Source: Escherichia coli
GTDB taxonomy: Bacteria; Pseudomonadota; Gammaproteobacteria; Enterobacterales; Enterobacteriaceae
Reading direction: 5' to 3' (one strand)
Assembly (NCBI RefSeq): GCF_003334255.1
Contig: NZ_QOWU01000055.1
Length of the DNA stretch: 38,946 nt
Below the pieces are notes generated by a model that was given only the letters and a program-made list of their open reading frames with translations, did no database searches and was not told where the DNA came from. Every line of letters starts with the position of its first letter. The stretch's first letter is position 1. Positions 5,410 through 38,946 of this stretch are shown in pieces. Both the position numbers and the translations under genes were made by a program.

Positions 5410-5617
<208 letters not shown>

Positions 5618-5630
5618 TAGTTAATTGCTC

Positions 5631-6914
5631 TTACTTCTTCGCCTCTGCAACCACTTTACTACCCACGCCGCGGTTATTGTATTCCCACATGCGGTTGTAG
5701 TTAGTGTCATTCAGATTGCGCTGTATTTCGTCGTTATCATCTACGCTGCCGGTATTACCCGCAAACGGACGATTAGAGATCACCGCATCGGCCCACGGTT
5801 TAGCCGTGTTAAAACCTTCGTTGATGGCGCTATCACGGATCACCACCTGACCGTTGGTATTGGCATCAACATCCAGCGAGCGGCCCAGTTGCGCCACACC
5901 ATCACCGAAAGCATTGAAACGGCTGTTTACGGCGAGGAAACCGTAGTAAATGTTGGACAGCGTAGCCGGTGCAAACACATACGCTTCTTGCTGAGTACGT
6001 GAGTTCACCACGCGGAATTCGGTGTTATCGAACACCACTGCGCCGCGACCAGAAACGATATCCACATCCCCTTCAATGTAGCTGTTGGTCACCAGCGTAC
6101 GCGGCTGACGATTCGTTTCCAGACGGTTCTGCACACCGCTGTTGGTGACAAAGAAGGTGTTCTGACGACCGAGAATGTTAACGTTGTTAATCTGTACCTG
6201 GTCACCATCAGTACGCAGTGCCACCGCCGGATGGTTACCTGCATCTACGCTATCGCCCAGCGTGTTTTCGATGGTCAGATTTTGCAGTTGCAGGCCATTG
6301 TTTTGTGACCAGAAGACCGCAGAGCAGAGAACACCGATACTGTCGCTGCGTTTGCTCTGGCAGCTATCGTACATATACCACGCTGGTTTACCTGGCATAT
6401 ATTTGCCGCGCGGGTTGACGTCGTGACGCCAGTCGGCAGGGCTCATGCCACCATCAAGGGAAAGCCCAATCTTCACATCAATCGGTTTTTCACCTGTACC
6501 GTACAGAGTAATTCCACCCGGAGCGGCAGGGACATATACCGTTCCCTGATACTCACCAGGCATCACGGCAATATACTGGCGCTTGTTGGTACGCTTGATA
6601 ATTGCCGCATCTACCGCCGCCTGAATCGTGGTATGCGTTACACCTTGAGTGCCCGCCGGGCCGACAACAAAGTCAGGTTGCGCAGGCAGGGTAATCGGGG
6701 AAGGATTCCACGCTGCAGCACCTGGTGTCAGGGATGCAAAATAGTGTTGAGCATCGAAATTCTGCGCTTCTTTTGCCGACAGAATCGGGCGAGAAGAGGT
6801 ACCAGGCGCGGTTTGATCAGAAGGACGTTGATCGGGCGGGGTTGAGCTACAGGCGGTCAGCGTCACGCCAAAAGCCAATGCCAGCGCCAGACGGGAAACT
6901 GAAAATGTGTTCAC
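5631..6914 (-). CDS. ybhC: Outer-membrane lipoprotein, pectinesterase-like fold (putative esterase/thioesterase)
   Basis: 427-aa ORF with GTG start; N-terminus MNTFSVSRLALALAFGVTLTAC has a signal peptide plus lipobox (LTAC). Confidence 0.85.
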   Translation of the reverse strand: MNTFSVSRLALALAFGVTLTACSSTPPDQRPSDQTAPGTSSRPILSAKEAQNFDAQHYFASLTPGAAAWNPSPITLPAQPDFVVGPAGTQGVTHTTIQAAVDAAIIKRTNKRQYIAVMPGEYQGTVYVPAAPGGITLYGTGEKPIDVKIGLSLDGGMSPADWRHDVNPRGKYMPGKPAWYMYDSCQSKRSDSIGVLCSAVFWSQNNGLQLQNLTIENTLGDSVDAGNHPAVALRTDGDQVQINNVNILGRQNTFFVTNSGVQNRLETNRQPRTLVTNSYIEGDVDIVSGRGAVVFDNTEFRVVNSRTQQEAYVFAPATLSNIYYGFLAVNSRFNAFGDGVAQLGRSLDVDANTNGQVVIRDSAINEGFNTAKPWADAVISNRPFAGNTGSVDDNDEIQRNLNDTNYNRMWEYNNRGVGSKVVAEAKK

Positions 6915-7034
6915 AGGTTGCTCCGGGCTATGAAATAGAAAAATGAATCCGTTGAAGCCTGCTTTTTTATACTAACTTGAGCGAAACGGGAAGGTAAAAA
7001 GACAAAAAGTTGTTTTTAATACCTTTAAGTGATA

Positions 7035-15217: not shown

Positions 15218-15315
15218 GCCTGATGCGCTACGCTTATCAGGCCTACATTTTCTCCGCAATATATTGAATTTGCGCGGTTTGTAGGCCGGATAAGGCGTTC
15301 ACGCCGCATCCGGCA
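15218..15315. repeat. BIME (two inverted REP elements) downstream of uvrB
   Basis: GCCTGATGCGCTACGCTTATCAGGCCTAC (15218-15246) and GTAGGCCGGATAAGGCGTTCACGCCGCATCCGGCA (15281-15315) with a conserved linker. Confidence 0.85.
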
Positions 15316-16529: not shown

Positions 16530-16676
16530 CACGCTAGTATCGGCATAACCACTAAACACTCTAGCCTCTGCACCTGGGTCAACTGATACGGTGCTTTGGC
16601 CGTGACAATGCTCGTAAAGATTGCCACCAGGGCGAAGGAAGAAATGACTTCGCCTCCCGTATCTGGAAAGGTGTAC
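16530..16676 (+). ncRNA. Moco riboswitch (cis-regulatory RNA) in the moaA 5' leader
   Basis: Leader ends with GAAGGAAGAAATGACTTCGCCTCCCG just before the moaA start, as expected for the molybdenum-cofactor RNA motif. The 5' boundary is approximate and no structure was computed. Confidence 0.55.
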
Positions 16677-17666
16677 ATGGCTTCACAACTGACTGATGCA
16701 TTTGCGCGTAAGTTTTACTACTTGCGCCTGTCGATTACCGATGTGTGTAACTTTCGTTGCACCTACTGCCTGCCGGATGGCTACAAACCGAGCGGCGTCA
16801 CCAATAAAGGCTTTCTTACCGTCGATGAAATTCGCCGGGTTACGCGCGCCTTCGCCAGTCTGGGCACCGAAAAAGTGCGCCTGACAGGAGGAGAGCCGTC
16901 TTTACGCCGCGACTTTACCGATATCATCGCCGCTGTGCGGGAAAACGACGCTATCCGCCAGATTGCGGTCACAACCAATGGTTACCGTCTGGAACGCGAT
17001 GTGGCGAGCTGGCGCGATGCGGGACTTACTGGCATTAACGTCAGTGTCGACAGTCTGGACGCCCGCCAGTTTCACGCTATTACCGGGCAGGATAAATTCA
17101 ACCAGGTCATGGCAGGGATTGATGCTGCATTTGAGGCCGGTTTTGAGAAGGTCAAAGTCAATACCGTGCTGATGCGTGATGTTAATCATCACCAGCTCGA
17201 CACCTTTCTGAACTGGATCCAGCATCGCCCTATCCAGCTGCGTTTCATCGAACTGATGGAAACGGGCGAGGGCAGCGAGCTCTTCCGTAAGCATCACATC
17301 TCTGGTCAGGTTCTGCGTGACGAGCTACTGCGTCGCGGCTGGATCCACCAATTACGTCAACGCAGCGACGGTCCCGCGCAAGTCTTTTGCCATCCAGATT
17401 ACGCCGGAGAGATTGGCCTTATCATGCCGTATGAAAAAGACTTCTGCGCCACTTGCAACCGCCTGCGCGTTTCCTCCATTGGTAAACTCCATCTCTGCCT
17501 GTTTGGTGAAGGCGGCGTTAACCTGCGCGATCTGCTGGAAGACGATACCCAGCAACAGGCGCTGGAAGCGCGTATTTCAGCGGCGCTGCGGGAGAAGAAA
17601 CAGACCCATTTCCTGCATCAAAACAACACCGGTATTACGCAAAACTTATCGTACATTGGCGGCTAA
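16677..17666 (+). CDS. moaA: GTP 3',8-cyclase (molybdenum cofactor biosynthesis protein A, radical SAM)
   Basis: ORF track frame 16596..17666; ATG at 16677 ([31 protein letters not shown]) giving 329 aa. Confidence 0.95.
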
Positions 17667-31921: not shown

Positions 31922-32020
<99 letters not shown>

Positions 32021-37067: not shown

Positions 37068-37069
<2 letters not shown>

Positions 37070-37097
37070 AAAAAAGCCCGTCCAGTGGCGGACGGGC
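37068..37097. terminator. Bidirectional terminator between convergent hcxB and ybiJ
   Basis: A8 tract, then stem GCCCGTCC/GGACGGGC with 6-nt loop; on the minus strand this reads as hairpin plus U8. Confidence 0.75.
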
Positions 37098-37165
37098 AAA
37101 CAAGGGTAACATAGGATCAATGAGGGTTAGAGCATATGCGTCTGTCGGCAAACAGACAGGGAAAT

Positions 37166-37294
37166 ACTTGTGCTGGACGTAGCGTAAACGCCTGATCCGT
37201 CCAACGGTTCGGATTTTGTAGGCCTGATAAGACGCGGTAGCGTCGCATCAGGCATCTGTTGCCGGATGCGGCGTAAACGCCTTATCCGTCCTAC
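37166..37294. repeat. REP/BIME cluster downstream of ybiJ
   Basis: GTAGGCCTGATAAGACGCGGTAGCGTCGCATCAGGC (37218-37253) and GCCGGATGCGGCGTAAACGCCTTATCCGTCCTAC (37261-37294), plus a partial REP-like segment upstream. Confidence 0.8.
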
Positions 37295-37297
37295 GAA

Positions 37298-37558
37298 TTA
37301 CTTATAAATTACCGCAGTACCGCTTAATTTATTGTTGTTGGTGGCGGAAGTGATGCTGTATCCACTGGCACCGGCTGCCGCGGCTTTCTCAGCCAGTTTC
37401 GCTTCCAGGGCATCGAGGGTGGATGCGCCATCGGCAGAAACCACGCCGATTTTATTCATGTTCTGTGCCTGGGATGCCGTTACCGGTTCCGCCGCGAACA
37501 CGCCAAATGACAGAGTTGAAAGAGCCATAGCAGCAACAACAGTATTGATAGTTTTCAT
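37298..37558 (-). CDS. ybiJ: Small secreted DUF1471 (YhcN/BhsA-like) stress protein
   Basis: 86-aa ORF with N-terminal signal peptide (MKTINTVVAAMALSTLSFGVFA). Confidence 0.85.
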   Translation of the reverse strand: MKTINTVVAAMALSTLSFGVFAAEPVTASQAQNMNKIGVVSADGASTLDALEAKLAEKAAAAGASGYSITSATNNNKLSGTAVIYK

Positions 37559-37630: not shown

Positions 37631-37822
37631 ACGAGAGATAAAATCGAAGAGAATTGACCGCCTTGTTCAAATAAATTGATTGATATCTAACCTACTGATA
37701 AACCATTTATTTGTTGTACTTATGAACTTGTTTTATACCGCGTGGCAGTCACAGCAGCGTTAAAGGCACGGAATGACACGCAAAATACAAATTATACTCG
37801 CTATGCATCTCGCCAGTTGTAG

Positions 37823-38089
37823 TTAACGTAACTGGCTGTCTTTCGAACCTCTGCGATTATATCCTGTATAAGCTGGTTTTTGTAAATCTTTCTCCTGCTG
37901 ACAATGAATACATAAGCGCACGCCAGGAATGGCTTCCCGACGGGCCTGCGGGATGGGGGCACCGCACTCTTCACATTCATCCAGGCTTTCGCCGCGCGGA
38001 ATTTCACCCCGAGCGCGGGCAATCGCATCTTCAATTGTACTGTTGATCTGTTCGTTGACGGCGTCATCGTTAGCCCAACCGGATGCCAT
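37823..38089 (-). CDS. ybiI: DksA/TraR-family C4-type zinc-finger protein
   Basis: 88-aa ORF with CxxC...CxxC (CEECGAPIPQARREAIPGVRLCIHCQ). Confidence 0.85.
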   Translation of the reverse strand: MASGWANDDAVNEQINSTIEDAIARARGEIPRGESLDECEECGAPIPQARREAIPGVRLCIHCQQEKDLQKPAYTGYNRRGSKDSQLR

Positions 38090-38162
38090 ATCGACCTCCC
38101 CATATCAATACTTGTACAGTTAAGTGTAGCTAATCCAGGGACGAACTCGGGCAGTTCAAGCA

Positions 38163-38840
38163 TCAGATCTCCGACCATTCCCGCAGCAGATTATGATAAA
38201 GATTAAGCAGCGACAGGATCTCTTCACTTTCGCCGTAGCGGCTTTTCAGCGACTGAATATTGTTGTCCAGTTCAAACAGCATGGCGCGCTTTTTATCATC
38301 GCGGATCATCGACTGGATCCACATAAATGATGCCACTCGTACGCCGCGGGTTACGGGTGTCACGCAATGCAGGCTGCTGGAGGGATACAACACGAGATCG
38401 CCTGCCGGGAGTTTTACCCGATGTTGTCCGAAGGTGTCATTAACGACCAGTTCGCCGCCGTCGTAGCTTTGTGGATCGCTTAAAAACAGCGTGGCAGAAA
38501 GGTCAGTACGCATCCAGCCGTTTTGTGGATGGCTGCGTACTGCGCCATCCACATGGAAACCATAGGTTTCATTGTTCTGATAGCGATTAAACAGCGGCGT
38601 GGAAAGGGTACGCGGCAAGGCCGCGGCAAAGAATAAAGCATGTTGGTTAACCGCGTTCAGCACCTCATTTTGCAGGGCGGCGTATAACGTGCTGCGGGTG
38701 TCGACCTGTTGATTGTTCTTAACTTGCGCACCTTGTGCGCCGGTGGTGACGCGTCCATCCACCCATTCGGCTTGTTCCAGTTGTTCGCGAAAACGAGCGA
38801 CGTCCTGTGGCGATAACACGCCGGGAATGTGGTACATCAT
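38163..38840 (-). CDS. ybiX: PKHD-type Fe(II)/2-oxoglutarate-dependent hydroxylase
   Basis: ORF track frame 38163..38873; start [17 protein letters not shown] giving 225 aa. Confidence 0.85.
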
Positions 38841-38883
38841 ACAATTTCTCCAAAAAGTGGGGCCTGCGCCCATAAGCGCTAAC

Positions 38884-38946
38884 TTAAGGGTTGAACCATC
38901 TGAAGAATGCGACGCCTCGGTGCCTCGTTAAGACGATGCCTCGCGT
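38884..38946 (-). CDS. 3' end of an upstream minus-strand gene (by synteny possibly the catecholate siderophore receptor fiu); partial
   Basis: Open minus-strand frame entering from the window edge and stopping at 38884-38886, 43 bp upstream of ybiX. Too short to identify from sequence; the assignment rests on synteny only. Confidence 0.25.

Follow-up and report, generated by a model that had tools for sequence, protein, structure and literature searches.

YbiI of Escherichia coli as a candidate TraR-like factor of the RNA polymerase secondary channel with an invariant C-terminal tail

Introduction

The closest described relatives of YbiI, an 88-residue zinc-finger protein of Escherichia coli, are TraR of the F plasmid, Orf73 of phage lambda and DksA. 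Its gene, ybiI, lies on the minus strand of a 38,946-nucleotide (nt) stretch of an E. coli contig (NZ_QOWU01000055.1), which is called the window below. When TraR is bound to RNA polymerase, its N-terminal helix (residues 2-27) reaches the active site, its globular domain (28-57) lies on the beta' rim helices and its C-terminal helix (58-73) lies on the beta lobe Si1 (PMC6970531). The stretch P43-R49 of TraR contacts the beta' rim helices and Si3; RNA polymerase binding requires P43 and P45, the interaction with the rim helices R48, and that with beta' Si3 the residues E46, R49 and K50 (PMC9239242, PMC6970531). TraR and lambda Orf73 require a DxxDxA motif, in which the substitutions D3N and D6N lower activity but do not eliminate binding, and homologues without D3 or A8 act more weakly (PMC9239242). 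Other phage homologues of TraR also bind RNA polymerase and reprogram transcription (PMC9239242).

YbiI was found by Blankschien et al. (2009) by BLAST with TraR (PMC2613031). At high expression it rescued the amino-acid auxotrophy of a dksA deletion and not that of a relA spoT strain (data not shown in that work), and the authors thought a role in iron likelier (PMC2613031). The gene is on record, as are its family and structure, its dependence on sigma-S and its expression in response to iron. Only a small number of E. coli proteins with the fold of a secondary-channel factor still lack an assigned function, and YbiI belongs to them. An earlier note on this DNA had called a regulatory link between this protein and its iron-regulated neighbourhood plausible but, as far as its author knew, untested. 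Published data on the dksA rescue (PMC2613031), the Fur-1 iModulon (PMC10164565), serum (PMC4145685) and sigma-S (PMC4447067, PMC5493296) already bear on that link. In the present analysis, the iron link, which has therefore been tested in part, was found to stem from the local gene order and not from the function of the family.

Results

Similarity of YbiI to RNA Polymerase-Bound TraR

On balance, YbiI is probably a TraR-like secondary-channel factor of RNA polymerase that is encoded on the chromosome and controlled by sigma-S, and its physical binding to the polymerase is what we infer from the comparisons below. The coding sequence of ybiI (37823..38089, minus strand; 88 codons and a TAA stop) was defined by the list of open reading frames (ORFs), the NCBIfam model NF008243, the annotation of E. 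coli genomes and the ratio of nonsynonymous to synonymous substitution rates (dN/dS). The Pfam family zf-dksA_traR (PF01258) matched residues 39-67 with an E-value of 5.1e-12, and the YbiI equivalog NF008243, for which the cut-off is 96 bits, covered residues 1-88 of 88 with a score of 160.5 bits. The ORF list, PF01258 and NF008243 agree with the earlier note, which gave no strand, on an 88-residue ybiI with a C4 zinc finger at these positions. The protein was identical to the chain of PDB 2KGO, a solution nuclear magnetic resonance (NMR) structure titled 'uncharacterized protein ybiI'. The closest solved sequences after 2KGO were those of TraR in RNA polymerase complexes (5W1S, E = 5.5e-10; 6N57, E = 1.6e-9), and the match to DksA among the solved structures was far weaker (E = 0.05). 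YbiI scored 45.4 for the TraR equivalog NF010268, whose cut-off is 108, and it stayed below the cut-offs of the DksA equivalogs TIGR02420 (20.1 versus 115.5), NF008045 (16.4 versus 289) and NF033459 (20.5 versus 105).

An AlphaFold2 (AF2) model of YbiI was built from 31 family representatives, with a mean predicted local distance difference test score (pLDDT) of 74. The model consisted of a helix at residues 7-28, the zinc ribbon, a helix at residues 61-70 and an unstructured, low-confidence tail at residues 71-88. It was superposed by Foldseek on TraR from the RNA polymerase complexes 6N57 (chain M; target template modelling (TM) score 0.71, root-mean-square deviation (rmsd) 2.9 Å, 70 columns) and 5W1S (chain M; rmsd 2.5 Å, 65 columns). 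As modelled, YbiI has a TraR-like size and topology.

Conservation at the positions that matter in TraR was counted over 111 family sequences. The C4 zinc ribbon CEECGAPIPQARREAIPGVRLCIHC (codons 39-63; 37901..37975, minus strand) falls under PF01258 and has the form C39-x2-C42-x17-C60-x2-C63, in which the four cysteines were conserved at 0.99-1.00. Within it, the segment PIPQARR (codons 45-51; 37937..37957, minus strand) corresponds, by conservation and by the residue roles of TraR, to P43-I44-P45-E46-A47-R48-R49 of TraR. The YbiI equivalents, numbered two higher than in TraR, were I46 (1.00), P47 (0.98), R50 (1.00) and R51 (0.95). P45 was conserved at only 0.52, the position of Q48 was occupied by E in 0.68 of the sequences and E52 was variable. 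Because I46, P47, R50 and R51 were conserved at 0.95-1.00, the alignment indicates that the surface by which TraR docks on RNA polymerase is kept in YbiI.

The N-terminal tip ASGWANDDAVNEQIN (codons 2-16; 38042..38086, minus strand), delimited by conservation, has the family consensus MAxGWAxDGAVQEQID. Conservation within it was counted for A2 (0.99), G4 (1.00), W5 (0.95), D8 (0.88), A10 (0.95), Q14 (0.98) and I15 (0.97). When counted back from the first cysteine, D3, D6 and A8 of TraR correspond to W5, D8 and A10 of YbiI, so that the motif reads WxxDxA, and MAFFT placed D8 and A10 under D74 and A76 of DksA. R129 and K139 of DksA are residues of ppGpp (guanosine tetraphosphate) site 2; the YbiI positions aligned to them are I54 and Q64. 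The earlier assignment of YbiI to the zinc-finger type that enters the RNA polymerase channel stood as regards the family, the TraR fold and the rim-binding residues; the full DxxDxA tip is absent.

Invariant C-Terminal Tail in Cells and Phages

YbiI ends in a tail, YNRRGSKDSQLR (codons 77-88; 37826..37861, minus strand), which was conserved at 0.95-1.00 per position and has no counterpart in TraR or DksA. Part of this conservation is circular, since the tail itself supplied the pattern by which 80 genome loci were collected. In an unbiased phmmer search, all 31 full-length representatives (31/31) carried the YNRRGSKDSQLR tail, and in 29 of the 31 it was identical to the consensus or differed by a single substitution; P0266 and P0182 deviated more. 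Most of the representatives of 50% clusters that seemingly have no tip or tail look like frameshifted, truncated or chimeric predictions and not like a separate subfamily.

The tail pattern was found in at least 591 species genomes, among them Enterobacteriaceae, Pseudomonas, Stutzerimonas, Halomonadaceae and Xanthomonadales. YbiI was matched by 875 phage records, of which 558 covered at least 80% of the protein. The full-length phage homologues were 41-57% identical to YbiI, with the tip MAxG[WF] and an identical or near-identical tail. They occurred in T4-like Straboviridae (Klebsiella phages Matisse and JD18, Aeromonas phage 65.2, Acinetobacter phage AM101 and Enterobacter phage PG7), in an Erwinia jumbo phage, in Pseudomonas phage VSW-3 (Autographiviridae) and in Proteus phage P59. 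The plasmid matches were almost all ordinary TraR, and the few 'plasmid' records of high identity were megabase-sized and look like chromosomes. Nothing specific on phage 'DksA-like' proteins with the YNRRGSKDSQLR tail was found in the searched literature. This sharing between cells and lytic phages would be most easily explained by a conserved host target.

In Proteus phage P59 (L085, 1144-3624), the YbiI-like gene was located near genes for a MazG-like pyrophosphatase, a ribose-phosphate pyrophosphokinase and a nicotinamide phosphoribosyltransferase. Its counterpart in Klebsiella phage Matisse (L086, 1501-3258) adjoined genes for a DNA primase and a nucleoside triphosphate (NTP) pyrophosphohydrolase. 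A recurring neighbourhood of nucleotide and alarmone metabolism in phages may be relevant to a role that resembles the stringent response.

Selection on ybiI and Its Expression

The ybiI gene starts with the ATG at 38089, preceded at a distance of 5 nt by the Shine-Dalgarno sequence GGGGAGG (38095..38101, minus strand; read from the sequence), and an AGGAGG-like element was kept upstream of the orthologues. Purifying selection on ybiI was strong, with dN/dS of 0.04-0.12 against the enterobacterial orthologues. A stretch of 1747 nt, which E. coli genomes annotate as ybiJ, ybiI and ybiX, was covered to at least 80% in 5419 of 5426 complete E. coli genomes. The wide conservation and the dN/dS of 0.04-0.12 mark ybiI as a real gene; it is a constrained core gene of the E. 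coli chromosome and no chance ORF.

The extended -10 element recognised by sigma-S has the consensus KCTAYRCTTAA. The spacer upstream of ybiI contains a candidate element of this type, GCTACACTTAA (38120..38130, minus strand), which fits the consensus; it was proposed on sequence and conservation, and the exact -10 assignment is putative. CTAYAMTTA elements were kept in the loci of Escherichia, Citrobacter and Pseudocitrobacter, whether ybiX lay upstream or not. Moreover, published data connect ybiI with sigma-S. The gene was recovered in sigma-S chromatin immunoprecipitation sequencing (ChIP-seq), was rpoS-dependent in quantitative reverse-transcription PCR (qRT-PCR), and was shown by gel shift and permanganate (KMnO4) assays to form an open complex preferentially with the sigma-S holoenzyme (PMC4447067). 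Furthermore, in genomic SELEX (systematic evolution of ligands by exponential enrichment) the sigma-S holoenzyme produced a peak within the spacer between ybiX and ybiI (PMC5493296).

This spacer (38090..38162, minus strand) carries no terminator-like site on the coding strand. The ybiX stop codon lies at 38163-38165, and the distance to the ybiI ATG is exactly 73 nt, the figure given in the earlier note. A search of the coding strand gave no intrinsic terminator 3' of either gene. An inverted repeat of 9 bp, GCCAGTTAC...AACTGGC (37812-37836), spans the ybiI stop codon and has a T-rich tail on the plus (antisense) strand only; it was rejected as a canonical ybiI terminator, as no T-run follows on the minus strand. 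An Rfam scan gave no match inside or beside ybiI.

As for iron, the Fur-1 iModulon contains ybiI alongside fiu and ybiX (PMC10164565); the gene is also induced in serum (PMC4145685) and has been described as part of a fiu(-ybiX-ybiI) operon (PMC12004943). Since no terminator-like site occurs between ybiX and ybiI, the co-expression of ybiI with fiu in E. coli and its iron response are most simply explained by transcription that reads through from the fiu promoter, which Fur represses. A nitric-oxide-induced 'YbiI' of strain CFT073 (c0940) was not used; it sits among phage genes and is probably a prophage paralogue.

Lineage-Specific Linkage to fiu and ybiX

The gene next to ybiI, ybiX (38163..38840, minus strand; NCBIfam NF003972), encodes a PKHD-type Fe(II)/2-oxoglutarate hydroxylase of 225 residues. 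In the ORF list it appeared with 236 residues, starting from an ATG at 38873 within the insertion sequence (IS) end described below. NF003972 scored its product at 519.8 bits and aligned over residues 1-225; for this reason, the ATG at 38840 was taken as the true start, and the 236-residue ORF is an artefact of the IS junction.

Among 80 species loci, ybiX and fiu were directly upstream of ybiI in 6, i.e., in E. coli, three Citrobacter and two Pseudocitrobacter, and in one Pseudomonas locus a ybiX-like gene was located 4.8 kb from ybiI. The pair ybiI-ybiJ occurred without fiu and ybiX in E. albertii, Enterobacter, Lelliottia, C. youngae ATCC 29220 and C. werkmanii, and Pseudomonas, Halomonadaceae and Xanthomonadales also keep ybiI without them. 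About 30 nt resembling the 3' end of ybiX were seen about 100 nt upstream of ybiI in E. albertii, C. werkmanii and C. youngae ATCC 29220 (L003, L008 and L011). This remnant suggests that fiu-ybiX was deleted, independently, in these three lineages. Adjacency of ybiI and ybiJ was commoner than that of ybiX and ybiI, as it was found in about 24 of the 80 loci, all of them from Enterobacteriaceae. The flanking genes varied with the lineage: Enterobacteriaceae had ybiJ, ybiB and rlmF as neighbours, and Pseudomonas had an oxaloacetate-decarboxylase-like gene and urease. When the flanking ORFs were clustered in search of another conserved neighbour, no real family was present in more than 22 of the 80 loci, and this candidate was dropped.

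A Fur-box-like 19-mer, GATTATGATAAAGATTAAG (38189..38207), matches the consensus at 14 of 19 positions; it falls within the ybiX coding sequence at its 3' end, some 60-80 nt 5' of the candidate -10. This weak lead is one of three 14/19 sites in the window, and it is probably explained by coding constraint within ybiX. Upstream of ybiI in the 80 loci, the excess of the top Fur-box scores over background was at most marginal, and no such box was located in the promoter core. A Fur box at ybiI itself was therefore rejected, as the best site is in the ybiX coding sequence and no clear family-wide enrichment was seen. A role of YbiI as partner or substrate of YbiX was likewise rejected as a family trait, because of the 6/80 adjacency. 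The linkage in 6 of 80 loci, the variable neighbours, the lack of clear Fur enrichment and the phage homologues together show that the iron neighbourhood is specific to the Escherichia/Citrobacter lineage and is not a trait of the family. The regulatory link that the earlier note had suggested from this neighbourhood was thus not supported as a property of the family.

Insertion Sequence at the Window Edge and Other Features

The earlier note had placed a siderophore-receptor gene at the window edge. In its place, alignment with K-12 and with strain PF9285 revealed the end of an IS186/IS421 (IS4-family) element, 76 nt long and running off the window (38871..38946, boundary within 1 nt); the window ends within this element, and fiu lies outside. 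The window matched K-12 up to GGGGCCTGCGCC and then read CATAAGCGCTAACTTAAGGGTTG. In K-12, 41 nt separate the end of fiu from ybiX, and the element was inserted in this spacer. The target-site duplication GGCCTGCGCC (38861..38870), the same sequence at both ends of the element in locus L001, is part of a GC-rich hairpin of the native fiu-ybiX spacer. PF9285, identical over the stretch, carries a 1.3-kb element with an annotated IS4-like IS421-family transposase, the duplicated GGCCTGCGCC on both sides and an intact fiu beyond it. The whole element is contained in L001 at 5670-7020, with the transposase gene in the same orientation as fiu, ybiX and ybiI. The IS junction was present in 58 of 5426 complete E. 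coli genomes.

The hairpin in which the element landed is followed by a T-run (GGGGCGCAGGCCCC ACTTTTT, coding strand) between fiu and ybiX and resembles a weak terminator. The element lies between ybiX-ybiI on one side and fiu with the promoter under Fur control on the other, so that the strain of the window probably has weaker Fur-dependent read-through, although the transposase gene is oriented in the same direction.

Downstream of ybiI, at a distance of 264 nt, is ybiJ (37298-37558, minus strand; DUF1471/YhcN family, NF007611). Matches to the Rfam families naRNA4 and ES036, i.e., intergenic repeats of the repetitive extragenic palindromic/bacterial interspersed mosaic element (REP/BIME) type, were obtained at 37221-37291 (minus), 5492-5562 (plus), 15239-15280 (minus) and 31943-31985 (minus), and one of these repeats falls between hcxB (ybiC) and ybiJ. 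In the same interval, at about 37068-37195, the small RNA zbiJ (minus strand) and the 19-residue ybiE (plus strand) are presumably located, on transfer of coordinates from the K-12 annotation. A molybdenum cofactor riboswitch, a known element (RF01055, 103.6 bits; 16545-16689, plus strand), overlapped the start of the ORF at 16596, which we take to be moaA.

Discussion

If YbiI acts in the manner of TraR, it would bind RNA polymerase directly and not DNA, and its single N-terminal helix would point to the active site. It would then change the kinetics of transcription initiation, or compete with DksA and the Gre factors for the channel. The gene would be expressed mainly from its own sigma-S-type promoter in the spacer, i.e., by cells that are in stationary phase or exposed to general stress. 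E. coli and a few related species would gain further expression by read-through from the fiu-ybiX unit, which Fur represses. In those lineages ybiI would behave as an iron-starvation gene, which would represent a positional overlay and not the function of the family. Binding of YbiI to RNA polymerase would give sigma-S, and in E. coli also iron, an input into the competition among DksA, Gre factors and Rnk for the channel.

Several observations weigh against the assignment of YbiI as a TraR-like channel factor. No report of direct RNA polymerase binding or of in vitro transcription with YbiI was found in the literature, and the dksA complementation was given as data not shown, needed high expression and was not accompanied by rescue of a strain lacking ppGpp (ppGpp0). 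The TraR subfamily model TIGR02419 was missed marginally, at 59.5 bits against a cut-off of 59.7. The DxxDxA motif was searched in residues 1-20 of YbiI and was absent; HMMER and MAFFT gave different registers for the TraR helix, and the first Asp was missing in either. The region of the TraR C-terminal helix is represented in YbiI by the predicted helix 61-70, which was variable except for Q64 and D68. The tip and the YNRRGSKDSQLR tail were the most conserved parts of the family, above this TraR-like region, and the tail is unrelated to TraR.

The prominence of the tail and of the MAxGW tip, which are kept across cells and phages, could also mean that YbiI acts through its basic tail on a target other than the secondary channel, such as the ribosome or a nucleic acid, and that the DksA-like effect at high copy number is a side effect of the shared fold. 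The DxxDxA motif is not intact, some C4 proteins of the DksA/TraR family do not act like DksA (PMC9239242), and Foldseek gave weak matches, at chance level, to ribosomal zinc-ribbon proteins. Against this, the residues that dock on the rim helices are invariant, the whole chain superposes well on RNA polymerase-bound TraR, and dksA complementation has been reported. In addition, the family was limited, among the matches listed, to Gammaproteobacteria and their phages, the lineage whose polymerase has the Si1 and Si3 insertions. Such a different target is unlikely, if the least unlikely of the alternatives. The altered tip also bears on a purely passive role, in which YbiI would occupy the channel in stationary phase and exclude DksA, GreA or GreB, for which Rnk is a precedent as a competitor. 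W5 occupies the position of D3, and in TraR and lambda Orf73 the D3N and D6N substitutions cut activity but do not eliminate binding, with weaker function in homologues lacking D3 or A8 (PMC9239242). The rescue of dksA auxotrophy, however, implies some positive DksA-like activity, and so highly conserved a tip suggests a specific role; passive occupancy was accordingly ranked next, as improbable.

The least probable alternative, to which we give little credence, is that YbiI works with its neighbours in iron or catechol-siderophore physiology, either as a dedicated iron-gene regulator or by serving YbiX as partner or substrate, with a residue of the tail being hydroxylated. The spacing of 73 nt from ybiX to ybiI downstream of it on the same strand, with no intervening terminator, the Fur-1 iModulon shared with fiu and ybiX, the induction in serum, the cited fiu-ybiX-ybiI operon (PMC12004943) and an invariant basic tail without an assigned role would all suit it. 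However, ybiX and fiu are upstream in only 6 of 80 loci and no neighbour family exceeds 22 of 80, and many lineages (E. albertii, Enterobacter, Lelliottia, Pseudomonas, Halomonadaceae and Xanthomonadales) keep ybiI without either gene. Fur-like sites were only marginally above background, with none in the ybiI promoter core, and the same protein, tail included, occurs in T4-like, jumbo and T7-like phages. The interpretation of YbiI as a TraR-like channel factor was thus retained as the preferred one.

A more far-reaching proposal, which is tentative, is that the YbiI clade forms a distinct class of secondary-channel factors, characterised by the MAxG[WF]xxD tip and the YNRRGSKDSQLR tail, with the tail making a new conserved contact with RNA polymerase. 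Such a class would be used by Gammaproteobacteria under sigma-S and by many virulent phages (T4-like, jumbo and T7-like), and its outcome would differ from that of TraR or DksA. Cells and hundreds of lytic phages have the invariant tail in common, which points to a contact with the host that is conserved and, for TraR or DksA, undescribed. One possibility is that the basic residues of the tail restore dependence on ppGpp in a protein of the size of TraR, which would fit the rescue of the dksA deletion without rescue of the ppGpp0 strain. In the searched literature, no description was found of the tail and the W-for-D tip as a signature of the clade, of the presence of the clade in hundreds of virulent phages or of the lineage-specific linkage to ybiX and fiu.

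In comparison with known systems, YbiI is nearest to TraR of the F plasmid (73 residues; 5W1S and 6N57) and lambda Orf73, with about 40% identity and the same three-part topology. It shares with TraR the spacing from the tip Asp to the first Cys, the I-P-x-A-R-R surface and the rescue of a dksA deletion on overexpression. It differs from TraR in the WxxDxA tip that follows an invariant MAxG, in a C-terminal helix region that is not conserved and in the additional invariant tail of 12 residues. Moreover, traR is a gene of the transfer operon, whereas ybiI is a chromosomal core gene with a sigma-S promoter, and TraR rescues a ppGpp0 strain, whereas YbiI did not. With DksA (151 residues; 1TJL, 5VSW and 7KHI), YbiI has in common the PF01258 zinc finger and R50, which aligns with DksA R125, but it has only a single helix and lacks the two-helix coiled coil and the N-terminal region of DksA. 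The DksA-like proteins of phages (phrog_54; Matisse gp27, PG7 gp107 and P59 gp134), of which none was found characterised in the searched literature, have the MAxG[WF] tip and the identical YNRRGSKDSQLR tail of YbiI. Unlike YbiI, the phrog_54 proteins are encoded in lytic phages among early and nucleotide-metabolism genes, and in them the conserved Asp stands one position away from where the cellular consensus has it.

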